Shown in pieces: positions 8,087 to 50,068 of a stretch of DNA of 64,000 bases. The notes beneath the pieces were generated by a model. The model searched no databases. It had not been told where the DNA came from and worked only from the letters and a program-made list of their open reading frames with translations. Both the position numbers and the translations under genes were made by a program. This DNA is from Kangiella sp. Lineage in GTDB: Bacteria > Pseudomonadota > Gammaproteobacteria > Enterobacterales > Kangiellaceae. Location: positions 53,642-117,641 of the forward strand of contig JANQSG010000018.1 of NCBI GenBank assembly GCA_028284185.1. The letters run 5' to 3'. Every line of letters begins with the position of its first letter. Positions within the stretch are counted from its first letter, which is position 1.

Positions 8087-9634
8087 ATGAGTGTGCAACT
8101 GAATCCATCTGAAATTAGTGAGCTGATTAAAGAGCGCATCGATTCGTTCGAAGTGGTTTCTGAAGCTCGCAACGAAGGTACTATCGTCAGCGTTTCTGAC
8201 GGTATTTTACGTATTCACGGTTTGGCCGACGTAATGGCTGGTGAGATGATTGAATTACCAGGCGGCAAATACGGTATGGCTTTGAACCTGGAGCGTGACT
8301 CTGTTGGTGCGGTAGTGTTAGGTGATTACACCGATATCGTAGAAGGTATGACCGCTAAATGTACTGGCCGTATCTTAGAAGTACCAGTAGGTCGTGGTCT
8401 TTTAGGTCGTGTGGTTGATGCATTGGGTAACCCAATTGATGGTAAAGGTCCCATTGATAACGACGGCTTCTCGCCAATCGAAAAAATCGCGCCAGGCGTT
8501 ATTGAGCGTCAATCAGTAGATCAACCGGTACAAACTGGTATCAAATCTATCGATGCAATGATTCCAGTAGGCCGTGGTCAGCGTGAGTTGATTATTGGTG
8601 ACCGCCAAACTGGTAAAACTGCTATCGCAATTGATGCAATCATCAACCAAAAAGGCACAGGCATTGTTTGTGTTTATGTAGCGGTTGGGCAAAAAGCGTC
8701 AACCATTGCTAACATTGTGCGTAAATTAGAAGAGCACGGCGCTATGGATCACACCATTGTGGTTTCAGCTTCGGCTTCTGATGCGGCGGCATTACAATTT
8801 ATCGCGCCTTTCTCGGGCTGTACCATGGGTGAATACTTCCGTGATCGCGGTGAAGATGGCTTAATCGTTTATGATGACTTGACTAAACAAGCTTGGGCTT
8901 ATCGTCAAATCTCGTTGTTGCTACGTCGTCCACCAGGTCGTGAAGCATATCCAGGTGACGTTTTCTATTTGCACTCACGTCTTTTAGAGCGTGCCTCACG
9001 TGTTAACGCTGACTATGTAGAAAAATTCACTGATGGCACAGTTAAAGGCCAAACTGGTTCTTTGACCGCATTGCCAATCATTGAAACTCAAGCGGGTGAC
9101 GTATCGGCTTTCGTACCAACTAACGTAATTTCGATTACCGATGGTCAGATTTTCCTGGAAACTGACTTATTCAACGCCGGTATCCGCCCTGCGGTTAACG
9201 CTGGTCTTTCGGTATCGCGGGTAGGTGGTGCAGCACAAACCAAGATCGTTAAGAAGCTTGGTGGTGGTGTTCGTTTGGCATTGGCTCAGTATCGTGAATT
9301 GGCGGCTTTCGCTCAGTTTGCATCTGATTTGGATGATGCAACTCGTGCCCAATTAGAGCATGGTCAACGGGTAACCGAATTAATGAAACAGAATCAATAT
9401 GCTCCATTATCGGTTGCTGAAATGGCGGTTTCTTTGTATGCAGCAGAGAAGGGTCATTTACAAGACGTTGAAATCTCTAAAGTTGGTGATTTTGAAGCTG
9501 CTTTGTTGGATTACTTCCGTAACCAACACGGCGATTTGATGAAAGAAGTCAACGACAAGTGTGATTACAACGACGAAGTTGCTGCTAAATTAGAAGAAGC
9601 AGTAACTAAGTTTAAAGCAACACAAACCTGGTAA
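8087..9634 (+). CDS. atpA: F0F1 ATP synthase subunit alpha
   Basis: Walker [10 protein letters not shown], and a conserved stretch from [19 protein letters not shown] onward. Confidence 0.98.
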
Positions 9635-9727
9635 TTTTTTTAAGATCAAGAGCGTTTTTTAAAAGCGTTCTTGGTGCTTAAAGAAAATACCGATTTGTTG
9701 AATTAACAAGACTAACTGGAAAAAAGT

Positions 9728-10588
9728 ATGTCAGGCGCTAAAGAAATTCGTACCAAAATTGGGTCGATTAAAAATACGCAAAAGATTACTTCTGCAATGG
9801 AAATGGTTGCAGCAAGTAAGATGCGTAAAGCGCAAGATCGCATGGCCTCTTCTCGCCCTTATGCTGAGAAGATCCGCAACGTGATCAAGCACATTGCACA
9901 AGGTACTCCAGAATATCGTCACGCTTATATCTCAGAGAGAGACATTAAGCGTGTGGGTTATATCGTTGTTTCAACGGATCGTGGTTTGTGTGGCGGTTTA
10001 AACATTAATTTGTTTAAACGAGCATTAACGGACATGCAAACCTGGTCTGAAAAAGACATCGAAATTGACTTGTGCTTAATCGGCAGCAAAGCAACCGCGT
10101 TCTTCCGTAAGTTCGGAGGTTCAGTAGTTGCGAAAACTTCAAATCTGGGCGATACGCCAGATATTGAAGATCTGATTGGTTCAGTAAAAGTAATGCTTGA
10201 TGCTTATGACGAAGGACGAATTGATCGTTTATTTGTAGTATCCAATGAATTTGTTAACTCTATGACCCAGGATCCAACGGTAGAGCAGTTGTTGCCGTTG
10301 CCCGTGGGCGAAGAAGAAGAGTTAAAGCATCATTGGGATTACATCTATGAGCCAGAAGCGAAGCCGCTTTTGGATAAATTGATGGTTCGTTTCATTGAGT
10401 CTCAAGTGTATCAGGCGGTGGTTGAGAATATTGCTTGTGAGCAAGCAGCGCGTATGGTGGCGATGAAAGCCGCTTCCGATAACGCTGGTGATTTGATTGA
10501 TGATCTTGAGTTGGTTTACAACAAAGCTCGTCAGGCAGCAATTACTCAAGAATTGGCAGAAATTAGTGCGGGTGCGGCAGCAGTATAG
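9728..10588 (+). CDS. atpG: F0F1 ATP synthase subunit gamma
   Basis: [37 protein letters not shown]-terminus and [14 protein letters not shown]-terminus. Confidence 0.97.
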
Positions 10589-39906: not shown

Positions 39907-41349
39907 ATGAACAAGCTAATAATTTCATTGCTTATTGTTTTATTATTAACAACACAAGTGGGAGCGGACGAAAAGAAAGAAAAAGAAACAAAAGAAAAAC
40001 CAGCAGTTATTTTTTCTACCTATTATGGAGGTGCCGGTACTGATGACTGCGATGCAATCGCTGTAGACCTTGTCGGGAATTCATACCTAGGTTGTCATTC
40101 AAATACGCTGCGCCTGCCCGGCGGAAGTGAGCAGGCATACAAGTTTGGCGGCAAAATGGATGCGTTTGTTGTAAAACTGAACAAACAAGGCAATAAGGTA
40201 AATTACCTGACTCATTTGAGGGGTTCCAAGTGGGAAGCTGTACAAGGATTGGCCACAGACTCAGCGGGTAACCTCTACGCAGTGGGGACCACTTACTCAC
40301 ATGATTTTCCTGTAAGTGCTGGTGCATTTCAAACCACTTTCGGAGGCAAAAGCGATGCGTTTGTAGTGAAACTTAACCCTGATGGAAAAGTGGCATGGTC
40401 AACATTTTTGGGGGGAAGTGCTGACGAGGATGGTCGAGATATTTCTATTGATCAACAAGGCAGAGTGCATATTGTAGGGCGCACAAAATCAAGCAATTTC
40501 CCAACCAAGAATGCACTGCAGATTCAATCGGGAGGGGGAATTGACGTATTTTTTGCAACGCTTGATGCTGACGGGAAAATGATTGCCGCCTCCTACTTAG
40601 GCGGCATCGGTGATGATATTGGTGCTGCAATCAAACTAGACAAAACTGGACGAAGATACCTTAGTGGCACTACTGATTCTTCAGATTTCCCTGTAAAGAA
40701 CGCATTACAAGCTAAACATCAAGGTGATGATGATTTATTTGTAGCGGTAATCAATGAAGCAGGTTCGATTCTTGAATTTGCCAGTTACCTGGGGGGAAGC
40801 GGAACCGATAAAGGGTATGATATTGGTTTAATGCCTTCTGGTGATTTGTTGGTTATGGGAGGCACCAAGTCAGAGAACTTTCCAACCACAGAGGGTGCTT
40901 TTCAGAAAATACTATCCGGTGAAAGTGACATCTTTGTTGCTCGGGTTAACCTGCAGGAACCGCATCTTGTCTACTCGACTTTTGTGGGGGGAGAGAAAGG
41001 CGAGGAACCTAAAAGACTTGTCGTTGATCATAATGGCAGGGGCTATGTCGTTGGTAAAACCGCCTCGCACAATTTCCCTACGACTAATGGTTTACAAATA
41101 AAGTTGCAGGGAAGAGCCGACGCATTTGTTACGGTACTCGACCCTACGGGAACAAGTCTTGCCTACTCCAATCTTTTTGGCGGAGGAGGTTTAGACGTCT
41201 TTGAAGATGTTGCTATCGGTGCTGATACTACTTTAACCATGTCAGGTTTATCAAACTCTACGAATTTCCCATTGCTAAATCCTCTACAGAGTACCTTCAA
41301 GGGGGGACGATTTGACATAATAGTAACGCGTATTACGATTCCCTATTAA
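39907..41349 (+). CDS. secreted SBBP-type beta-propeller repeat protein (seven blades)
   Basis: Signal peptide, then seven units of about 58 aa each. Each unit has (S/T)(Y/F)LGG...D.G..I..D..G..Y..G.T.S.(N/D)FP....A.Q.....G..DAFV.KL. Confidence 0.8.
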   Translation: MNKLIISLLIVLLLTTQVGADEKKEKETKEKPAVIFSTYYGGAGTDDCDAIAVDLVGNSYLGCHSNTLRLPGGSEQAYKFGGKMDAFVVKLNKQGNKVNYLTHLRGSKWEAVQGLATDSAGNLYAVGTTYSHDFPVSAGAFQTTFGGKSDAFVVKLNPDGKVAWSTFLGGSADEDGRDISIDQQGRVHIVGRTKSSNFPTKNALQIQSGGGIDVFFATLDADGKMIAASYLGGIGDDIGAAIKLDKTGRRYLSGTTDSSDFPVKNALQAKHQGDDDLFVAVINEAGSILEFASYLGGSGTDKGYDIGLMPSGDLLVMGGTKSENFPTTEGAFQKILSGESDIFVARVNLQEPHLVYSTFVGGEKGEEPKRLVVDHNGRGYVVGKTASHNFPTTNGLQIKLQGRADAFVTVLDPTGTSLAYSNLFGGGGLDVFEDVAIGADTTLTMSGLSNSTNFPLLNPLQSTFKGGRFDIIVTRITIPY

Positions 41350-41399
41350 GAGAGTAAATGTTAACGCAAAGATTAACTCTTGCCTGATTTTTAAATTTG

Positions 41400-41453
41400 A
41401 TCCCTGCTTACGCAGGGATGATAACCAATCTTAGATTCCAACTTTCATTGGAA
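41400..41453. repeat. REP-like hairpins (ATCCCTGC-TTAC-GCAGGGAT and TTCCAA-CTTTCA-TTGGAA)
   Basis: Stems read directly at 41400-41419 and 41436-41453. The first is the same family as 4232-4251. Confidence 0.55.
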
Positions 41454-41462
41454 CGATATTTG

Positions 41463-41570
41463 ATATTAAATGAACCAATCTCCTTTTTGCTTCGTCTTGT
41501 TAGTAAAGGCATAAAATAAACAGTATGAAAACGAGTCGCGAAGAGTTTTCAGCACAAGCAGGCAATGAAG
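41463..41570 (+). repeat. Duplicate of the ECF sigma promoter and first ~15 codons (copy 1, orphan)
   Basis: Matches 49106-49217 and carries a 9-nt deletion relative to it. Similarity ends abruptly after GGCAATGAAG. Confidence 0.85.
41471..41496 (+). promoter_or_regulatory. ECF-type promoter motif TGAACC-N16-CGTC (orphan copy)
   Basis: TGAACC at 41471-41476, a 16-nt spacer, then CGTC at 41493-41496. Both hexamer-like elements are identical to the copy at 49114-49139, while the spacer differs. Confidence 0.4.
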
Positions 41571-41620
41571 CTATTTCCACGAGCTGGATGGCAACAAGCA
41601 AATGTGCTTTGTATAGTTGA
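41525..41620 (+). pseudogene. Truncated 31-codon stub of the ECF sigma gene
   Basis: MKTSREEFSAQAGNEAISTSWMATSKCALYS* compared with the intact MKTSREELLVISAQAGNEVALA... Confidence 0.6.
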
Positions 41621-41684
41621 ATAAAGCCTATTCACAAGATTTTGGGTCATTGGGTTCAGAATTTTTAATTGATGTTTATAGATA

Positions 41685-43820
41685 TTATTGACTGACAGTC
41701 AATTCCACCACTTCTTTTTTAGCGGCCACTTGTTTGGTTATTAACAGTTGGGTTTGATTGACATCGGTCAGGTAATCGACGTCTTCACGCACCGCCCCCA
41801 ATACAGTAAACGTTTCACTGTCCAGATCATAGGACCACAATTGGTGATTGCTGTTGATGGCGTATATCGTATTGTTTCGTATCACGAAGGTGGCGGCCCG
41901 GTCTCCTTGATTGTTTAAGGCTGTAATGGGTTGCGGTTCAGCGGGCCCAGGTTGCCAAAATTGATCCAACTGATCCTTGTAAATCAAGCGGCCATCGGCG
42001 GTTTTCAGCGCCCATTGGATGGATTCATCGGTGATCACTCTGAAGGTTGATTGGATCAAATCGTATTCAACGAATTGGATGATGCCTCGTATGCGTACCA
42101 GTAATAAGGCTTGCTTGTTCTCACTGTCCCACTGGAACAGTTGCACCACAGAATGTGGCATTGGAAAATCTTGTTGCTTACCGTCCAGATGAACTTGGGT
42201 GAGTACGCCATTGGCGTTGACCAACAGGCTTTGGCCGTCTTTCGCCCAATCAATGCCACGGATATAGGTGTCGGTAGGAAAGTGGGTGAGTTGTCGTGGT
42301 GTTTGGCCATTGCTGACCCACAGTTGCTGTTCGCCAGATCGTTTTGACCAGAAAGCAATCAACTCGCCATCGGGTTGGAACATTGCATAATCCTCACCAA
42401 GGATGGAACGCTCAAAAGGTGTGTATGTCTCAGTCGCTGCCATTTGATTGCTTGCGTCGTCGGTCAATGTATCCAAAGGCATTAACACAATGTCACTGTC
42501 ATACGCCCCTTTGATCATGAGCAAACGGTTGCCTTCAGGGTGAAACACGGGTTGAATCATCTGGTCGGTAAAGGGCAGGTTAATTTTATCGATTTGACCA
42601 TCGTATGAAAGAGTGAACAGTTGTCTGCCAGTGCTGAAGATCAGTTGGTCATTCAACGGGTCAAAATTCGGACGGATGCGACGAAATTTGGCAATCTCTG
42701 GCGGCTGCTTGATCAAGTGACTGGATAACAGGCTGCCGTCAGGTTTGAGCATTTCGATGTATTGCTGACCATCGCTGTGGATGCGGTTCACCGCAAGCAA
42801 ATCTTTTTGCGCAGAATAAGCATAGTCGATGAGGGTGCCGTCGGTTGGGTTGTACAGGTCGGTGCTGGTGTTGTTACTGATTGAATAGTTAATCAGCCTC
42901 CAGCGCTTGGTTTGCCTTTGTAACAGGGCTATGTTGTCATCGCCGATCCATTGGGGTTTGACGGTTTTGTATTTTTTGCATTGCAGCAGCACGTTCGGCT
43001 GCTGTGGGTTTTGTAAGGCTTCGGTAAAATCCAAAGACACCAAATCAAAGCAATCCGTTTGGGTCACCGGTTCATCACAGGCTTCGGTGGCAAAAAACAC
43101 CAGTTGCTGACCATCCGGTGAAAAGTCATGACTGCCATAAGCACCCCAATCTTTGGTCAGTTGGATCTCTTGTTGGGTCTCGATGTGTTTGGCCCAAACC
43201 TTATTGATGCACAACTTACCTAAATACCGATGGAATACAATGTATTGACCGTCCGGTGAATAGCTTGCATCAAACTCCTTGTCGTCAGTGGCGGTCAGTG
43301 AGCGTAAGGTATCAAAAGTGATTGTGGATGATGGTTCAGGTGCCAGGAACTTGGCCCCCAATACCCCCAACAGCAAAATGGCAGCAGCAACAACCATCGG
43401 TTTATATGCTGACCTTGAAGTTTGAGGCTGATTGGCTTTCTCAGAGCTGCTGTCATCAAGACCATGACTGTCTAAAGTGTTGGGTCCGCTCGGGTCGGTA
43501 TGATCATGCCACCTGACATCGCACTCCAGGCTGTAACCTCGTTTGGCATGGGTTTTGATGTAGGCTTGGCCTTTGCCATCATCGCCAAGCGCCCGTCGCA
43601 GTTGGGCGATGCTTCGTTGTAAGGTATTGGGTGAAACGATGGTGTCTGGCCAGACCTGGGCCAACAAATCATCTTGACTGACCACCTGGCCTTGATTTTC
43701 CGCCAGACAGGTCAGTACCGCCAGTGCTTTGGGTGCCAGAGTTTGGGTTTGTTGGTTTTGGGTGATTTGATTTCTGGATAAATCAATATAAAAACCACCG
43801 ATCCAATACTGTTTTGTCAT
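41685..43820 (-). CDS. CadC/ToxR-like membrane-bound transcriptional regulator with a periplasmic TolB-like (PD40) beta-propeller domain
   Basis: N-terminal OmpR/PhoB-type winged helix (LAPKALAVLTCLAENQGQVVSQDDLLAQVWPD...LQRSIAQLRRALGDD...GYSLE). One TM (MVVAAAILLLGVLGAKFLA). PD40 motifs YSPDGQYIVF, FSPDGQQLVF and FQPDGELIAF. Start set at MTKQYWIGGFYIDL (ATG at 43820). Confidence 0.8.
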   Translation of the reverse strand: MTKQYWIGGFYIDLSRNQITQNQQTQTLAPKALAVLTCLAENQGQVVSQDDLLAQVWPDTIVSPNTLQRSIAQLRRALGDDGKGQAYIKTHAKRGYSLECDVRWHDHTDPSGPNTLDSHGLDDSSSEKANQPQTSRSAYKPMVVAAAILLLGVLGAKFLAPEPSSTITFDTLRSLTATDDKEFDASYSPDGQYIVFHRYLGKLCINKVWAKHIETQQEIQLTKDWGAYGSHDFSPDGQQLVFFATEACDEPVTQTDCFDLVSLDFTEALQNPQQPNVLLQCKKYKTVKPQWIGDDNIALLQRQTKRWRLINYSISNNTSTDLYNPTDGTLIDYAYSAQKDLLAVNRIHSDGQQYIEMLKPDGSLLSSHLIKQPPEIAKFRRIRPNFDPLNDQLIFSTGRQLFTLSYDGQIDKINLPFTDQMIQPVFHPEGNRLLMIKGAYDSDIVLMPLDTLTDDASNQMAATETYTPFERSILGEDYAMFQPDGELIAFWSKRSGEQQLWVSNGQTPRQLTHFPTDTYIRGIDWAKDGQSLLVNANGVLTQVHLDGKQQDFPMPHSVVQLFQWDSENKQALLLVRIRGIIQFVEYDLIQSTFRVITDESIQWALKTADGRLIYKDQLDQFWQPGPAEPQPITALNNQGDRAATFVIRNNTIYAINSNHQLWSYDLDSETFTVLGAVREDVDYLTDVNQTQLLITKQVAAKKEVVELTVSQ

Positions 43821-43977
43821 AGGTGAATCTATTTGAGCATTGGTCTCAATTGTAACTAAATTAACAATAGCTACCAAAATAATATTTCAGTATCAGCCAA
43901 AAATCAGCAGAACTTCAGGTATTTTTAATTGTGTGCCACTTAATATTGGTGGCTTAATAAGTGAGCACCTGAATCCG

Positions 43978-44838
43978 ATGAAGAAAAAATTATTCATAGT
44001 ATTTTTATTTTTGCAGCCCTTAATCGGCCTTGCTGCCAGCGAGCGAACAGCTTATGAAATGCCCAGAACACACGTTATTCCAATCCATGATTCAACGTCA
44101 GACAAACAGTACGAACTGTACATCAAGCTACCAGAAAACTATGTTGCAGAAGAAGACAGTGTCTATCTCGTGATCTATTTCACTGATGCCGCGTGGCAGA
44201 TCGAAATGTTATCTGCTACCACGGCATTCATGATGGAAAACGCCATTTTGGTTGGTATATCCTGGCAAAAAGACCTGGATGAAGCAATCATTAAGGAGGT
44301 GGGTGAACATGCCAGTCGCTTCAGCGATTATTCCATCCGGACATCCAATGACCCAGACCGTCAAGCCAAGTATCATTTTGGTCAAGCCAAAAACCACCTG
44401 ACTTTTATCCGCAACGACGTGATCAAGTACGTGGAAAACAACTACCGAACCGATCCTGCCAACCGCACTTATTTTGGTTATTCCTTGGGCGGATTATTTG
44501 GTGCTTACGTCCTGGCAGCGCAACCGAACACCTTCAAAAATTACATCCTTGGCAGCCCATCTCTGAAGCGCGATAACCCTACGCTTGCAGCACTTAAACC
44601 AGATCCGGCAACCATTGATGGTGGTCTGAAGGCCCATGTTTATATTTCCTATGGCAGTTTGGAACAGGAAAGGGCTGCGCCGATTAAGGCATTTACCGAC
44701 CTGATGAAAAGCAGATACGGTCAGCGCCTGTCGGTCACGCCTGCCGTGATTGAAGGCAGCCATCAGACCGCTTTTCCGTTGACTGCGGTGAACAGTGTGA
44801 AATGGCTGGTCAACTTGACGCCAGGAGAACAACAATGA
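43978..44838 (+). CDS. secreted alpha/beta hydrolase, putative esterase family (IroE/Fes-like fold)
   Basis: Signal peptide MKKKLFIVFLFLQPLIGLAA and a nucleophile elbow FGYSLGG. Start set at the ATG at 43978. Its stop overlaps the next start (ATGA). Confidence 0.7.
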   Translation: MKKKLFIVFLFLQPLIGLAASERTAYEMPRTHVIPIHDSTSDKQYELYIKLPENYVAEEDSVYLVIYFTDAAWQIEMLSATTAFMMENAILVGISWQKDLDEAIIKEVGEHASRFSDYSIRTSNDPDRQAKYHFGQAKNHLTFIRNDVIKYVENNYRTDPANRTYFGYSLGGLFGAYVLAAQPNTFKNYILGSPSLKRDNPTLAALKPDPATIDGGLKAHVYISYGSLEQERAAPIKAFTDLMKSRYGQRLSVTPAVIEGSHQTAFPLTAVNSVKWLVNLTPGEQQ

Positions 44839-47800
44839 AACTCCAATTGATTTTTGTGGTACTGCTTATGGTGTATTCGACCAACAGCCACAGTGATACA
44901 CAAAGAGAATTTCCAGTCCTCAAAGGCCCCCTTATGGGACAAAAGCCACCAGGCATGGTGGCGGAACCTTTTGCCCCTGGCATCATCTCCAAAGCGGGCT
45001 GGGAGCTTGAGGGCGTGTTTGCTCCTGGCATGCAAGAGTTTTACTTCACTACACGCAACGGTAACGGCAAATCCAGTATGGTGGTCGGCTTACGCCAGCA
45101 CAATAATGTCTGGAAGAAATACATTGAATTCAAACGTCGTGGAGAAGTTACGTTTTCACCAGATGGCAAACGCATGCACATGGCCCAAGGGTATAAAGAT
45201 CGCATCGGTGATGGCTGGTCAAAGTTAAAAAGTCTTGGTTCCCCGTTTGAAGACTTCCGCATCATGCGCCTGACGGCTTCGTCAAAAGGAACCTATGTAT
45301 TTGATGAAGCAACTAGAGATGGAAATGGTGTTATTCGCTATTCACGCCTGATAAACGGTAAGCGTGAAGCACCGAGGCCTTTTAGTAAAGAGATAAACAC
45401 GGGTAAATGGAGCGCTCATCCCTTCATTGCTCCAGATGAGTCTTACATTATTTGGGACAGTGAGAGAGAGGGCGGATATGGTGATAGTGATCTGTATATT
45501 AGTTTTCGACAACAAGATGGTTCATGGGGATCTGCCATCAATATGGGTGAGCAAGTTAACTCTCCCCAGTGGGATGCCTATGCAACCGTCACGCCAGACG
45601 GCAAGTACATCCTTTTTAATAGAGGCATTGATGACAACAATGAGAACGTAGACATCTACTGGGTGGATGCACAAATTATTGAGACCCTCAGGGCTAAAGA
45701 TAAAGGGTGTTGTTTCGAAGAAAATAATGGCCCCGCACCGGAGGCAACAGCCGCCCAAGCCAAGCGCTCGTTCAGGGATATTCCTGATCTCAAAGAAGCC
45801 TTTATCGATGCAGCGCCAACGCATAGAAAAGACGGTATATCCGTTGGTGAGTTGGGTGTCGATGGTGGCAATAAAACGATGATTGTCAAGCTGGCTGAGG
45901 AAATCGCTGACAACAAGCATGGTAACTACGACAGCCTGCTCATCGCCCACAAGGGCAAGCTCTTATTTGAATCCTATTATTTACGCGGCCGCATCAACCT
46001 GCCCCATTTCCAAGCGTCAGCGACTAAAGCCTACACCAGCTTGGCACTCGGCCGTGCTATCCAGTTGGGTTATCTGACCATGGCCGATTTGGACAAGCCA
46101 TTGGTGAGTTTTCTCAAAGATCTGGACCCAACAAAATTTGTCGAGGGTGTAGAAAAGATCACCCTCCACAAAGCGATGACAATGAGTTCGGGACTTAGCA
46201 TTACGGAAGAACAGCTTAACGAATTCAGGAAAAATCCTGATCAGTTAAAAGGCCAGGGCCAAGTTCAAGTTTATCTTGAGCGCAGTGCGCCTGTTAGTTC
46301 AGAGTCTCAGAAATTTGACTATAAAGGAACTGATCCAGACATGGTGATGCAAGTCATTGAGGCCGTCGTGCCAGGCACCGCCCAGGATTTCATCAAAAAT
46401 GAAATTCTCGACAAAATGGGCATCATGAATTATGGCTGGCGGACTAATGTTAGTGGCCTGCCAGAAGCGGGTGCTCGTGCGAAAATGACTTCGCGCGATA
46501 TGGTCAAATGGGGAACCTTGGTCAACAACAAAGGTAAATGGAATGGTGAACAGCTTATTTCAGCAGATTTTCTAGCGAAGGCCACCAGTGGAATTACTCA
46601 GCCTACAGAAGATTGGCAGCCCGAAACCTATCGCTACGGTTATTTTTGGTATCAAACGAATATAATAGTCGGCGATAAAAGCTATCAGGCCAATTTAGCT
46701 TGGGGTGGAGGCGGGCAGCACATCATAGTGCTTGAAGAGCTTGACTTAATTATTGCGATCACTGGTCATGACAGGGAAGATACCATAATGACTCAGGTTT
46801 CAAAAAACATCATACCTGCGTTTGCTAAAGATAAATTCCCAGTCCTGGAAGGCCCTTATATTGGGCAAAAGCCTCCTGGGTTAACACCTAAAGTTTTTGC
46901 TCCTGCTATTGCCTCGACAGAATATCGTGACTGGGGCGGTAGCTTCACGCCGGACATGAAAGAGTACTACTTTACGAGGAGAAATAACAAAACAGGAAAG
47001 TCATCGAAATATGTTTTTAAATCCGAGAATAATCGGTGGTACGAGTCAGCAGTGGATTGGGGGGGCTTTATCTCGCCTGATGGTAAAACTATGTATTCCA
47101 AAAAGAAGTATAGAGAGCGCACAGATGACGGTTGGTCAGAGTTAAAAAGTCTTGGGCCCTTGTTTGAAGAATTCCACATCATGCGCCTGACGGCTTCGTT
47201 AAAAGGAACCTATGTTTTTGATGAAAGAGATGAAATCGGCACCATTCGATATTCTCGAATAATAGATGGTAAGCGTGAAGAACCGAAAAAATTTGGTAAA
47301 GAAATTAACACTGGTAAATGGACCGCTCACCCCTTCATTGCTCCAGATGAGTCTTACATTATTTGGGACAGTGAAAGAGAAGGCGGATATGGTGATAGTG
47401 ATATGTATATCAGTTTTCGACAGCCAGATGACTCATGGGGTGCCGCCATTAATTTCGGGGATAAAATAAACACAGATGGCGAAGACGGTGGGGGGTACGT
47501 CACGCCAGACGGAAAATATCTTTTCTATTGTCGCCGTTGTAGCCCACCAGATTTTGAAATCATGTGGGTGGATGCGCAGATTATCGAGAGCCTTAGGCCT
47601 AAAGAGAGCAGTTTCAGCAGCTTTATTGCGGCAAATGTCGAAGAAAATAATGGCCCCGCACCGGAGGCAACAGCCGCCGAAGTCAAGCTCTCATTTAGGG
47701 ATATCCCTGATCTCAAAGAAGCTTTTATCGATGCAGCGCCAACGGATAAAAAAGACGGTATTCCCGTGGGTGAATTGGACGTTGATGGTGGCAATAAAGA

Positions 47801-48770
47801 CATGATTGTCCAGCTGGCCAAGGAGATCGCTGAAGGTAAGCACGGAGAGTTCGACAGCCTGCTCATAGCCCATAAGGGCAAGCTCTTATTTGAATCCTAT
47901 TATTTGCGCGGCCGCATCAACTTACCTCATTTCCAAGCGTCAGCGACTAAATCCTACACCGGTTTGGCACTCGGCCGTGCTATTCAGTTGGGTTATCTGA
48001 CCATGGCCGATTTGGACAAGCCATTGATCAGCTTTCTGAAAGATCTGGATCCAACAAAATTTGCGGAGGGCGCAGAAAAAATCACCTTGCATCAAGCATT
48101 GACCATGACCACGGGTATTCGCATCAGTGATGAAAACTGGAAAAAAATGCAGAAAAACCCAAGAAGGTTAAAAGGTCAGGGACAAGTTCAGGCACTTTTT
48201 GAGTATAGCACTCCTATTACTGCAGAGGCACAGGTGTTTCGTTACAGCGCCGGACCTCAATTAGTGATGCAAGTGATTGATGCTGTCGTACCGGGGACGG
48301 CTAAAGATTTTATAAAAAATGAATTCCTCGGCAAAATGGGCATCACGAACTATGATTGGCAGACTGCCGTTAGCGGACTACCAGAATCTGGTTGGAAGGT
48401 AAGCGTAACATCACGAGATATGGCCAAAATTGGAACATTGGCCATGAACAAAGGTCGATGGAAGGGTGAACAGCTGATTCCAGAAGCCTTCATCACTCAA
48501 GCGATCAGCAGGATCAACTATTCTGGTGATGAGGATATTTTCGGCGGTGGCAAAGATGTCTCTAATCAGGGGTATGGTTATTTCTGGTGGAGCGGAGATT
48601 TGAGAGTCGGCAATAAAAGTTATTTCGCCGCATCGGCTCAGGGTGGTGGCGGTCAGTACATTATTCTGATCGAGGAGCTTGACCTGATGGTTGTGGTTAC
48701 TGCTCATGACAACGATAACCGTACCCTGCAAATAATCGCAGAGAGGATCTTACCAGCTTTCATCAATTAA
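44835..48770 (+). CDS. exported 1311-aa protein with two tandem [TolB-like PD40 domain + beta-lactamase-fold serine hydrolase] modules
   Basis: Signal peptide MKLQLIFVVLLMVYSTNSHS. PD40-like FSPDGKRMH/VTPDGKYILF and ISPDGKTMY/VTPDGKYLFY. SxxK nucleophile motifs HFQASATKAYT and HFQASATKSYT, each followed by a WGGGGQH / QGGGGQY box. Start set at the ATG at 44835. Confidence 0.85.
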   Translation: MKLQLIFVVLLMVYSTNSHSDTQREFPVLKGPLMGQKPPGMVAEPFAPGIISKAGWELEGVFAPGMQEFYFTTRNGNGKSSMVVGLRQHNNVWKKYIEFKRRGEVTFSPDGKRMHMAQGYKDRIGDGWSKLKSLGSPFEDFRIMRLTASSKGTYVFDEATRDGNGVIRYSRLINGKREAPRPFSKEINTGKWSAHPFIAPDESYIIWDSEREGGYGDSDLYISFRQQDGSWGSAINMGEQVNSPQWDAYATVTPDGKYILFNRGIDDNNENVDIYWVDAQIIETLRAKDKGCCFEENNGPAPEATAAQAKRSFRDIPDLKEAFIDAAPTHRKDGISVGELGVDGGNKTMIVKLAEEIADNKHGNYDSLLIAHKGKLLFESYYLRGRINLPHFQASATKAYTSLALGRAIQLGYLTMADLDKPLVSFLKDLDPTKFVEGVEKITLHKAMTMSSGLSITEEQLNEFRKNPDQLKGQGQVQVYLERSAPVSSESQKFDYKGTDPDMVMQVIEAVVPGTAQDFIKNEILDKMGIMNYGWRTNVSGLPEAGARAKMTSRDMVKWGTLVNNKGKWNGEQLISADFLAKATSGITQPTEDWQPETYRYGYFWYQTNIIVGDKSYQANLAWGGGGQHIIVLEELDLIIAITGHDREDTIMTQVSKNIIPAFAKDKFPVLEGPYIGQKPPGLTPKVFAPAIASTEYRDWGGSFTPDMKEYYFTRRNNKTGKSSKYVFKSENNRWYESAVDWGGFISPDGKTMYSKKKYRERTDDGWSELKSLGPLFEEFHIMRLTASLKGTYVFDERDEIGTIRYSRIIDGKREEPKKFGKEINTGKWTAHPFIAPDESYIIWDSEREGGYGDSDMYISFRQPDDSWGAAINFGDKINTDGEDGGGYVTPDGKYLFYCRRCSPPDFEIMWVDAQIIESLRPKESSFSSFIAANVEENNGPAPEATAAEVKLSFRDIPDLKEAFIDAAPTDKKDGIPVGELDVDGGNKDMIVQLAKEIAEGKHGEFDSLLIAHKGKLLFESYYLRGRINLPHFQASATKSYTGLALGRAIQLGYLTMADLDKPLISFLKDLDPTKFAEGAEKITLHQALTMTTGIRISDENWKKMQKNPRRLKGQGQVQALFEYSTPITAEAQVFRYSAGPQLVMQVIDAVVPGTAKDFIKNEFLGKMGITNYDWQTAVSGLPESGWKVSVTSRDMAKIGTLAMNKGRWKGEQLIPEAFITQAISRINYSGDEDIFGGGKDVSNQGYGYFWWSGDLRVGNKSYFAASAQGGGGQYIILIEELDLMVVVTAHDNDNRTLQIIAERILPAFIN
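44908..46830 (+). repeat. Intragenic tandem duplication, module 1 (about 1.9 kb)
   Basis: Starts at FPVLKGPLMGQKPPG. It stays in register with module 2 at offsets of 1911-1926 nt. Confidence 0.85.
46834..48767 (+). repeat. Intragenic tandem duplication, module 2
   Basis: Starts at FPVLEGPYIGQKPPG. Several patches are near-identical to module 1, for example 47332-47425 against 45421-45514. Confidence 0.85.
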
Positions 48771-48840
48771 ACTGTAAAAGTAATAAATAAGCCGTTACCA
48801 AATATTATGAAAATTTAAACAATGAGAAAACATATTTTAT
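48747..48840 (+). repeat. Tail repeat, copy 2
   Basis: ATCTTACCAGCTTTCATCAATTAAACTGTAAAAGTAATAAATAAGCCGTTACCAAATATTATGAAAATTTAAACAATGAGAAAACATATTTTAT matches 37913-38008. Confidence 0.7.
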
Positions 48841-48979
48841 AAGGTAAATTCACCCGACGCTAAAAAGCGAACTGATTAACGATGTTATATTTAATTCAGT
48901 AAGTGTAGGTTGAGGTGAAGCATGAACCCCAACAAAAAGGTTTTCTTTGTATCGTCGGGGTTCACGGGCTCATCATTGA

Positions 48980-49085
48980 CCTACGTCATTTCCGCGTAGG
49001 CGAGCGACCAAAGGAAGTGCCCATAGTGAATCTATAGCCAGCCCAATTCTATCTATTAGATGGATTCGCGCTTTCGTGGGATGAC
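48980..49085. repeat. Degenerate REP-like elements
   Basis: CCTACG-N9-CGTAGG at 48980-49000. GGATTCGCGCTTTCGTGGGATGAC at 49062-49085 resembles a decayed GATCCCTGC-TTTC-GCAGGGAT unit. Confidence 0.4.
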
Positions 49086-49105
49086 AACGGTACGTTAAAA
49101 CGTAT

Positions 49106-49217
49106 AAATTAAATGAACCTCTTTTAATTTTCCTACGTCTTGTTAGTAAAGACATAAAATAAATGGTATGAAAACGAGTCGTGAGGAGTTATTGGTGATT
49201 TCAGCACAAGCTGGCAA
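49106..49217 (+). repeat. ECF sigma promoter and 5' end (copy 2, attached to the intact gene)
   Basis: See 41463-41570. Confidence 0.85.
49114..49139 (+). promoter_or_regulatory. ECF-type, probably autoregulated promoter TGAACC-N16-CGTC
   Basis: TGAACC at 49114-49119, a 16-nt spacer, then CGTC at 49136-49139, about 30 nt upstream of the sigma start. It fits the general AAC-N16/17-CGT pattern of ECF promoters. Confidence 0.55.
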
Positions 49218-49671
49218 TGAAGTTGCTCTTGCTGAACTCTATCAAAACTTTTATCAGCCATTAGTCAAATTTGCTTATAAGCTTTGCGGTCATCACGACT
49301 GGGCACAGGATGCAGTGCAAGATGTTTGGTTGGATGCGGCCAGGAAGCTACGCAAACTTAATGATCCAAAAGCTTTTCGGAGTTGGATGTTTCGTGCAGT
49401 GCGCTGGCGCTGTATCGATTTAGCCAGAAAAGCAGGCAAAAGTCAGCAACTTAATGGTGAAGAAAATATCGCTCAAGAAATGCAAACGCAAGATTTTGGT
49501 CTGCTGAAATTGATCGATGAGTTACCAGAAGTCGAACGTCAGGCAATCTATTTGTTTTATCTGGAAGAAATGTCACTTGCCGAAATATCAATTGTGTTAG
49601 AGGTACCACAGGGCACAATAAAGTCACGATTAAATCGAGCAAGAAATCATTTAAAAGAATTACTAACCTAA
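49168..49671 (+). CDS. RNA polymerase sigma-70 family, ECF subfamily
   Basis: 167 aa. Region 2 is DWAQDAVQDVWLDAARKL. Region 4 helix-turn-helix is MSLAEISIVLEVPQGTIKSRLNRARNHLKE. Confidence 0.9.
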   Translation: MKTSREELLVISAQAGNEVALAELYQNFYQPLVKFAYKLCGHHDWAQDAVQDVWLDAARKLRKLNDPKAFRSWMFRAVRWRCIDLARKAGKSQQLNGEENIAQEMQTQDFGLLKLIDELPEVERQAIYLFYLEEMSLAEISIVLEVPQGTIKSRLNRARNHLKELLT

Positions 49672-49672
49672 G

Positions 49673-50068
49673 ATGAGTAAAGAGGTAATAGCTATGAAAA
49701 TTGATGAACGAATTAAACAAGAATTGGAAACTGAGTCAGCTCAACTGGATAAAATTTTAGCCGAAGAACCTGGTTTATTTGGTCAGGTAGCTGGAATTTT
49801 TAAAGGCGGTCTTAAATTCTGGGTTATTGTGGTCAATATTTTTGTGATGTTATTTACAGTAATCATGATTTGGTCAGGCTATGAATTTTTTGTGGCAGAT
49901 AATATTGATAACCGTATATTTTGGGGCGTTATAGTTTTAGCATCACTGAAGGCTCAAGTATCTTTAAAGGAATGGTTGTTTAGTGAAATGCGTCGAAGTT
50001 CTTTAATGCGAGAAATTAAGCGGCTGGAATTATCCGTTGAGTATTTGCAGCAGAAAATTGAAAGTTAA
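49673..50068 (+). CDS. small two-TM protein; candidate anti-sigma or sigma-associated membrane protein
   Basis: Starts 1 nt after the sigma stop. Has a cytoplasmic N-terminal helix, two TMs and a C-terminal coiled segment. No HxxxCxxC zinc anti-sigma motif is present. The role is inferred from position only. Confidence 0.4.
   Translation: MSKEVIAMKIDERIKQELETESAQLDKILAEEPGLFGQVAGIFKGGLKFWVIVVNIFVMLFTVIMIWSGYEFFVADNIDNRIFWGVIVLASLKAQVSLKEWLFSEMRRSSLMREIKRLELSVEYLQQKIES

Follow-up and report, generated by a model that had tools for sequence, protein, structure and literature searches.

A ToxR/CadC-like membrane regulator with a periplasmic tandem beta-propeller is divergently paired with exported hydrolase genes: a candidate envelope sense-and-hydrolyse module in Kangiella sp. 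and relatives of its regulator

We analyzed a 64,000-nucleotide stretch of Kangiella sp. DNA (contig JANQSG010000018.1, positions 53,642 to 117,641 of the forward strand; hereafter the window, to which all coordinates refer). In it, the gene of a regulator composed of a winged-helix DNA-binding domain, one transmembrane helix and a beta-propeller sensor is transcribed divergently from an exported esterase gene and the gene of a large exported double hydrolase. The first-pass annotation, made from the letters alone, had proposed that these genes form a sensing-plus-degradation module. We found that regulator and hydrolase genes are paired throughout the regulator family and that a conserved array of direct repeats, the predicted operator, lies just upstream of the regulator in a fixed orientation. 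It is therefore reasonably probable that the locus encodes an envelope sense-and-hydrolyse module, in which a membrane-tethered regulator would drive the expression of exported hydrolases. The regulator class itself is familiar, while the sensor domain, the operator layout and the regulon are new here.

The regulator gene (41685-43820, reverse strand) encodes a protein of 711 amino acids from an ATG at 43820. A longer form starting at a TTG at 43877 is unlikely, since the homologues compared begin at the methionine of the 43820 ATG and not at the TTG. Residues 1-105 (nucleotides 43506-43820, reverse strand) constitute a cytoplasmic winged helix of the OmpR/PhoB type, in which the Pfam domain Trans_reg_C matched residues 26-98 (E = 1e-17); Pfam showed no other cytoplasmic domain and no receiver domain. 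The best solved match was the DNA-binding domain of CadC (5ju7, E = 1.6e-14), with ToxR also among the top matches. A cytoplasmic linker, disordered in the AlphaFold model (about residues 106-140), precedes the transmembrane helix (residues 139-161, nucleotides 43338-43406, reverse strand), which is followed by the tandem beta-propellers assigned to the periplasm (residues 165-711, nucleotides 41688-43328, reverse strand); a Pfam PD40 match was also found within the protein (E = 2e-10). The model (predicted local distance difference test, pLDDT, 79) contains a helix at residues 139-159 and two all-beta domains at about 168-450 and 470-711. Its helix coincides with the only hydrophobic segment of the protein (residues 137-162), and about 545 residues of beta-propeller come after it. 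Pfam, hydrophobicity and AlphaFold thus bear out the earlier description of a one-span winged-helix regulator with a periplasmic PD40 propeller, and we infer a single-span topology with the DNA-binding domain inside and the C-terminal sensor in the periplasm.

By architecture, the protein is a member of the ToxR/CadC-like transmembrane one-component regulators. The family alignment shows four invariant periplasmic cysteines (C204, C248, C257 and C281) and a near-invariant DNA-binding domain, which fits an operator common to the family. Two more specific identities were ruled out. The CadC equivalog model NF007540 scored 58.6 bits against a cutoff of 400, with an alignment limited to residues 7-131, so the protein is not a CadC orthologue. 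The TolB model TIGR02800 reached 40.8 bits against a cutoff of 343, the common part being the PD40 repeats only, and no tol-pal genes were found in the gene neighborhood.

The pairing of regulator and hydrolase genes was assessed in 80 metagenome loci together with genome loci, counting distinct full-length regulators with at least 1.5 kb of upstream sequence (n = 68). An esterase, a PD40 module or a beta-lactamase-fold module was present among the first two divergent genes of 59 of the 68 regulators; by type, PD40 modules occurred in 48, esterases in 41 and beta-lactamase folds in 19. Across the family, the beta-lactamase-fold domain is a less constant partner than the esterase and the small standalone PD40 proteins, which are the most constant of all. 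In each of the seven genome loci that contain a related regulator, divergent esterase, PD40 and/or beta-lactamase-fold genes were present. In character, the window resembles the DNA of a marine gammaproteobacterium near Marinicella. The best genome match to the regulator came from a Marinicella metagenome-assembled genome (71% identity), where the flanking genes differ, and a search from the enzyme side recovered Thalassotalea euphylliae and Pseudoalteromonas sp. A25, both with a divergent regulator at 32% identity. At two metagenome loci (L022 and L023) the divergent partner is a gene that joins a PF00756 esterase to tetratricopeptide repeats (esterase-TPR). Even the four relatives with only 25-26% sensor identity have exported esterases or metallo-beta-lactamase-fold proteins as neighbors, namely three tandem esterase-TPR genes, a single esterase-TPR gene, a metallo-beta-lactamase-fold gene and a downstream esterase, respectively. 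The sensor domain family comprises 139 clusters at 50% identity (E <= 1e-30), nearly all of them proteins of 680-760 amino acids with the same layout, and the tandem beta-propeller sensor occurs almost only in regulators of this architecture.

When all open reading frames of at least 120 amino acids in 90 loci were clustered, no conserved neighbor other than the hydrolase modules emerged, and no ToxS-, TcpH- or LysP-like partner gene was conserved nearby. The first-pass annotation had held that a lack of co-occurrence in other genomes would refute the module; instead, the pairing is kept across the whole regulator family. Such strongly conserved pairing argues that the functional link between regulator and hydrolases holds.

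Several loci show further arrangements of these genes. Two or three paralogous propeller-sensor regulators lie close together in L091 (three within 14 kb), L092, L036 and L026, each divergent from its own hydrolase of the metallo-beta-lactamase fold, the beta-lactamase fold or the PD40-beta-lactamase type. In a locus of the flavobacterium Aquimarina (L012, 2281-8956), the gene of a homologous beta-lactamase-PD40 hydrolase and two standalone PD40 genes stand beside two LytTR/His_kinase two-component pairs in place of a ToxR-like regulator, and in Pseudoalteromonas sp. A25 (L010, 10509-13200) a PF00144 gene adjoins a LytTR/His_kinase pair. In other phyla the same enzymes may thus be wired to a different sensor. 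The acidobacterium Sulfidibacter corallicola (P0179) encodes a regulator that is 59% identical over its full length. Within the window, the segment 42001-48000 has a guanine plus cytosine (GC) content of 46-48%, compared with about 42% for the window, and is preceded at 36-40 kb by a stretch of 32-35% GC. The Sulfidibacter regulator and this contrast in composition hint at horizontal transfer of the module.

The divergent intergenic region (43821-43977) is 157 base pairs (bp) long, as first described. Alignment of the upstream regions of homologous regulators revealed an array of three or four direct repeats with the consensus aCCTGAcGTnnnnCTGAnTTnTnnCTGAn and an 11-bp period, found always on the regulator's strand and just upstream of the regulator. 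An array score of at least 11 out of 12 was reached by 65 of 78 non-redundant upstream regions, compared with 1 of 1560 shuffled sequences, and the array is kept in relatives at about 25% sensor identity. In the window, the predicted operator (43887-43918, reverse strand, reading in the regulator direction) consists of three exact CTGA-N7 repeats at 43893-43918 (CTGAAGTTCTGCTGATTTTTGGCTGA) and a fourth CTGA out of register at 43887-43890. It is the only match in the 64 kb at one mismatch or fewer, where 0.12 are expected. At locus L096, where the esterase gene lies downstream of the regulator gene, the array precedes the esterase and not the regulator, and at L015 and L016 extra arrays of the same geometry precede additional esterase genes. 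We consequently predict that the CTGA-N7 array is the operator of the regulator.

The position of the array relative to the hydrolase promoter is also conserved. In 66 loci aligned on the proximal repeat, the sequence TCAgGTnTTTt is followed after 21 nucleotides by a conserved TAaaTT, a spacing which suggests that the proximal repeat occupies the -35 position of a promoter without a -35 consensus. In the window, the predicted -10 box of the hydrolase operon (TAATAT, 43941-43946, forward strand) lies 32 nucleotides before the esterase ATG and starts 22 nucleotides past the proximal TCAG (43915-43918); a -35 consensus is absent. On the opposite strand, a promoter scan identified TTGGTA-N17-TACAAT (43849-43877), the only sigma-70-like promoter in the divergent region, as the predicted promoter of the regulator gene. 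No known RNA element was found by Rfam in 41000-49500 at E <= 1.

Additional motifs occur in the leaders of other loci. Most regulator genes in loci L013-L092 carry an extended -10-like element, TGCTAAGAT, followed by a short palindrome, ACTCAnTTTTGAGT, about 35 nucleotides before the ATG; this leader, located about 30-45 nucleotides upstream of the starts (for example in L048, L040 and L053), is absent from the window. The arms of the palindrome seem to covary in some loci (GCTCA...TGAGC, GATTTAA...TTAATC), and it could be a hairpin of the 5'-untranslated region or a second operator. Another motif, ATTATCAnnnGGTTACAAAG, lies in most metagenome loci about 110 nucleotides before the regulator ATG, with the CTGA array on one side and the regulator promoter on the other, and is likewise absent from the window. 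In L043, the 11-nucleotide unit TTTAGGTTTTAG is expanded in tandem to about five copies some 60-110 nucleotides upstream of the regulator ATG, while L042 has the same flanking upstream sequence without the tandem expansion.

Two imperfect palindromes in the divergent region had initially been put forward as operators. Both exist, at slightly shifted coordinates: ATTGT-N10-ACAAT at 43849-43868 and GCCAC-N9-GTGGC at 43935-43953. The 157 bp contain eight perfect inverted repeats with 5-bp arms and a gap of 0-20, compared with 4.7 +/- 2.8 in shuffled sequences, and eight or more were reached in 15% of the shuffles and in 14% of 157-bp tiles of the window. The first palindrome overlaps the -10 box and spacer of the predicted regulator promoter; L002 and L003, which are the closest loci, keep its TACAATTG but not the other arm of the palindrome. 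The second brackets the TAATAT box, at the same place L002 and L003 have GCC-TAAGAT-GGC, and as an RNA hairpin its stability is ordinary (z = -1.2). Because the palindromes occur at chance frequency, are conserved at most in the closest relatives and coincide with two predicted -10 boxes, we rejected them as operators.

The divergent open reading frames were confirmed at 43978-44838 and 44835-48770, both on the forward strand, and all four domain assignments made at first (Trans_reg_C, PD40, PF00144 and PF00756) were supported by searches with the hidden Markov models of Pfam. The first gene encodes an esterase of 286 amino acids with a signal peptide and an alpha/beta hydrolase domain (PF00756, E = 1.9e-11, 44.7 bits against a cutoff of 22), whose nucleophile motif GYSLG, of the GxSxG type, lies at residues 167-171. 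Among solved structures it is closest to the bacillibactin esterase BesA (2qm0, E = 7.9e-15) and to siderophore esterases of the IroE-like/PfeE kind, and its homologues number more than 1000, all with generic names only. The second gene encodes 1311 amino acids, and its ATG at 44835 is the first codon of a signal peptide (MKLQLIFVVLLMVYSTNSHS). Stop and start codons overlap exactly, as ATGA, at 44835-44838, and translational coupling holds: an AGGAG Shine-Dalgarno sequence lies within the 3' end of the esterase gene, 7 nucleotides upstream of the second ATG (coupling site 44823-44838, forward strand). Overlaps of 1-4 nucleotides likewise occur in loci L002 and L009. A paralogue of the esterase-TPR type with its own CTGA array (L015, about 8900-10204; L016, 4075-5253) has a glutamate in place of the nucleophilic serine, reading FGWELGAY instead of FGYSLGG, and may be a non-catalytic binding protein.

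The large protein consists of two units. Unit 1 (44835-46829, forward strand) comprises the signal peptide, a PD40 propeller at about residues 25-290 and a beta-lactamase fold at about 340-665 with the motif SATK at 395-398. Unit 2 (46830-48770, forward strand), with a second PD40 propeller and beta-lactamase fold and SATK at 1036-1039, is fused in frame without a signal peptide of its own (junction ...PAFAK|DKFPVLEGP...). Pfam matched PF00144 in two stretches (E = 8.6e-29, 101 bits against a cutoff of 27) and PD40 with E = 4e-19, and the AlphaFold model of unit 1 had a pLDDT of 83. The two units share 62% protein identity and 74% DNA identity, and their beta-lactamase domains represent two distinct sequence subtypes; given these values, the different subtypes and the occurrence of separate genes elsewhere, a recent tandem duplication of the large gene was rejected. 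Among the loci compared, the four-domain fusion is found only in the window. In related loci the modules are carried by separate genes, with the two domains in one order or the other, or occur as standalone PD40 proteins with signal peptides (about 290 amino acids), up to four in tandem. Single units of about 660 amino acids make up a large family, as yet unnamed, whose members occur in marine Gammaproteobacteria, Flavobacteriia and Alphaproteobacteria. The large hydrolase is thus a lineage-specific fusion of two paralogous units.

Ser395, Lys398 and Tyr496 are invariant among 28 homologues. The asparagine of the YxN motif is replaced (YKG in unit 1, YSA in unit 2), as is the KTG box (WGGGGQ in unit 1, AQGGGGQ in unit 2), and a class C beta-lactamase proper of the AmpC kind was ruled out by these missing motifs. 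Foldseek and sequence searches placed the domain nearest to Lsa45 (8dc1), PIB-1, NylB and family VIII esterases. Since the SATK motif and the Ser/Lys/Tyr set are retained, the KTG box is missing and the fold is near that of esterases, the beta-lactamase-fold domains look like active serine ester/amide hydrolases and not like bona fide AmpC enzymes. For the PD40 module, no solved relative was found by sequence search, and 55 aligned modules contained no nucleophile set that would indicate a catalytic site, the conserved residues being mostly glycine, proline, tryptophan and other aromatics. Database names of the homologues are limited to 'winged helix-turn-helix domain-containing protein', 'serine hydrolase', 'alpha/beta hydrolase' and, for some, 'CubicO group peptidase'.

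Taking these features together, we propose the following mechanism. The winged helix would stay in the cytoplasm, tethered by the disordered linker and the membrane helix, while the two beta-propellers would act as the sensor of a periplasmic signal. Once the sensor is engaged, regulator molecules would fill the three or four CTGA-N7 repeats, one per helical turn, and recruit RNA polymerase to the -35-less promoter in the manner of PhoB. The operon would then yield periplasmic serine hydrolases, namely an IroE/BesA-like esterase coupled to PD40/beta-lactamase-fold enzymes with a Ser-Lys-Tyr set. The proximal repeat at the -35 position, the conserved -10 box and the lack of a -35 element suggest that the regulator is most likely an activator. 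Our best guess for ligand and substrates is small ester- or amide-linked molecules, for example oligopeptides, depsipeptides or other natural products. A ligand class common to the propellers of sensor and enzyme, as first suggested, received no specific support, because a single PD40 repeat of 42 columns aligned between them in a profile-profile comparison (80% probability).

Some observations weigh against the sense-and-hydrolyse reading or against details of it. For nine of the 68 regulators, neither of the first two divergent genes is one of the usual partners. Of these nine, two pair with a metallo-beta-lactamase-fold hydrolase (L036, 8521; L091, 2461), one has an esterase just downstream of the regulator (L068), and one is accompanied by an acyltransferase and a LanC-like gene, with a TonB-dependent receptor in the divergent operon (L046). 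Foldseek searches with the regulator propellers returned tandem propellers of a generic kind only (LRP6 and EML-like ciliary proteins, for example), and in the enzyme model the placement of the domains relative to one another is uncertain (predicted template-modeling score, pTM, 0.56). The gap between repeat and -10 box is 22 nucleotides in the window and 21 in the consensus. In addition, activation was preferred to repression only on the grounds of the missing -35 element and family precedent, and repression by an operator that covers the -35 position is equally conceivable.

The simplest alternative, that the regulator controls other genes and that the hydrolases are its neighbors in one genome only, has nothing specific in its favor and is merely the default for a single genome viewed alone. 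The comparative data contradict it: the pairing recurs for 59 of the 68 regulators and is still seen in relatives whose sensors are about 25% identical, and the operator array goes along with the promoters of the hydrolases. We regard chance adjacency as barely credible. What the module acts on is a separate question, for which we considered three answers. It is possible, though unlikely, that the module serves inducible detoxification or quenching, the sensor detecting a harmful or signaling molecule of neighboring organisms (a beta-lactam, lactone or depsipeptide antibiotic, or an acyl-homoserine lactone) and the hydrolases destroying it, with a logic like that of ampR-ampC or BlaR1-BlaZ. 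Family-wide, the partners are all of the 'lactamase/esterase' kinds (serine beta-lactamase folds, metallo-beta-lactamase folds and alpha/beta esterases), the enzymes carry signal peptides that predict export, and the nearest structures include PIB-1 and Lsa45, a penicillin-binding protein with esterase activity. The varying genomic contexts and the acidobacterial regulator from Sulfidibacter suggest horizontal spread, which would also suit such a role. However, the absence of the KTG box and the YxN asparagine of true class C enzymes speaks against it, as do the equal resemblance of the folds to esterases and amidases and the lack of linked efflux or target-protection genes among the open reading frames of the 90 loci.

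The kinship of the esterase with BesA, IroE-like hydrolases and PfeE points instead to the processing of foreign siderophores. Here catecholate siderophores with an ester backbone would be cleaved in the periplasm by the esterase, as they are by IroE, PfeE or BesA, and the regulator would sense the ferric siderophore, in parallel to PfeS/PfeR-pfeA-pfeE. The esterase is indeed the most widely retained partner, distant relatives included, and the exceptional locus L046 has a TonB-dependent receptor in its divergent operon. However, no TonB-dependent receptor, ATP-binding cassette importer, synthesis gene or iron-regulation gene is conserved beside the module, and the TonB-dependent receptor of the window is 4.4 kb away, outside the conserved unit. 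PF00756 is a broad family in which the likeness to BesA goes no further than the common fold, and the PD40 and beta-lactamase-fold partners would be left unexplained; we consider this role distinctly unlikely. Even more doubtful is a role in cell-wall turnover or envelope stress, in which the propeller would sense peptidoglycan fragments or damage and the beta-lactamase-fold units would act on muropeptides as DD-peptidase or D-aminopeptidase-like enzymes. PF00144/S12 does include DD-peptidases and D-aminopeptidases, R61 and a Pyrococcus 'CubicO' enzyme are among the fold matches, the name 'CubicO group peptidase' recurs among homologues, and PD40 is the repeat type of TolB and of the gating propellers of peptidases. 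Yet the beta-lactamase-fold domain is dispensable, many loci having only the esterase and PD40, the regulator falls far short of the TolB score (40.8 against 343 bits), and murein or tol-pal genes are not linked. Gene context across the 90 loci favors none of the three substrate readings.

Comparison with known systems places the regulator close to CadC of Escherichia coli and ToxR of Vibrio cholerae, with which it shares the N-terminal OmpR/PhoB winged helix without a receiver, the single transmembrane helix and the periplasmic sensor, as well as conserved periplasmic cysteines. The CTGA-N7 array at the hydrolase promoters would correspond to the several binding sites that CadC and ToxR have upstream of the target promoter. 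A disordered cytoplasmic linker is also present in CadC (PMC5430869). In contrast to both proteins, the regulator of the window has as its sensor a tandem beta-propeller of about 545 residues, and its predicted targets are exported hydrolases. The operator layout differs as well: the Cad1 site of CadC is a head-to-head, quasi-palindromic site far upstream (PMC5430869), whereas the predicted operator here is a head-to-tail repeat array abutting the -10 box. In this respect the locus resembles PhoB targets, with 11-bp repeats at the -35 position and the same DNA-binding fold. The pho boxes are direct repeats with an 11-bp period that replace the -35 element of a -35-less promoter. Unlike PhoB, the regulator is membrane-tethered, lacks a receiver domain and phosphorylation, and is matched with a different repeat sequence.

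With respect to gene content, ampR-ampC and PfeS/PfeR-pfeE likewise place a sensor-regulator beside the gene of an exported hydrolase of the beta-lactamase fold or the IroE-like kind; ampR and ampC are divergently transcribed, and the inducers of both systems are known. Their regulators belong to unrelated classes (a LysR-type protein and a two-component system), so that homology is not implied. On the enzyme side, the nearest solved relatives of the beta-lactamase-fold domains are Lsa45 of Leptospira (8dc1), family VIII carboxylesterases and NylB, which share the SxxK nucleophile. These relatives were matched with E = 9e-18 by sequence and E = 1e-17 by Foldseek (template-modeling score 0.71 on the target) at 12-24% identity; none has an N-terminal PD40 propeller. 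WmpR of Pseudoalteromonas tunicata is a ToxR-like regulator of antifouling compounds with a regulon of pigments, pili and iron uptake (PMC12153261, PMC10269533). Compared by description, WmpR is a lead only: its genus, of marine gammaproteobacteria, also carries the propeller-sensor family, while the reported regulon differs.

The annotation had named no characterized system of this composition, and our literature searches found none either. A table of characterized transmembrane regulators in a 2023 survey contains nothing of the kind (PMC10269533). Searches for the domain combinations returned nothing relevant in a literature whose coverage omits most subscription journals; the module is real and widespread, and its description as uncharacterized is accordingly provisional.

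ToxR-like membrane-tethered regulators are the simplest transmembrane signaling devices known, and to our knowledge only a handful have been studied, mostly from enteric pathogens and vibrios. The present family would add a new sensor type with a clean, conserved operator/promoter layout and a defined output, namely exported hydrolases of the esterase and beta-lactamase-fold kinds, which are plentiful in marine bacteria. If the ligand were identified, several large 'hypothetical hydrolase' families would gain a function together, and the system could be of use as a simple ligand-inducible expression switch. As a more speculative extension, which we hold tentatively and regard as rather unlikely, the propeller-sensor regulators may be an unrecognized, horizontally mobile family of periplasmic small-molecule receptors, in which every paralogue would recognize its own foreign natural product, be it an antibiotic, a signal or a siderophore-like ester or amide, and would induce a matched exported hydrolase. 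If true, marine surface bacteria would carry an inducible, modular repertoire of chemical defense or quenching that could be read via the common CTGA operator.

The genes surrounding the module in the window are of other kinds. Convergent to the regulator gene, the segment 39113-41349 holds a gene for a CAAX-type (Rce1-like) membrane protease and a gene for an exported SBBP beta-propeller repeat protein of 480 amino acids that is LipL53-like; both recur in L001, a contig identical to this DNA, and are absent from related loci. Downstream of the hydrolase operon, a gene for a sigma factor of the extracytoplasmic function (ECF) type at 49168-49671 is followed, with an overlap of 1 nucleotide, by the gene of a DUF6768 membrane protein at 49673-50068. 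The two are not conserved beside the module in other loci and probably form a sigma/anti-sigma pair.

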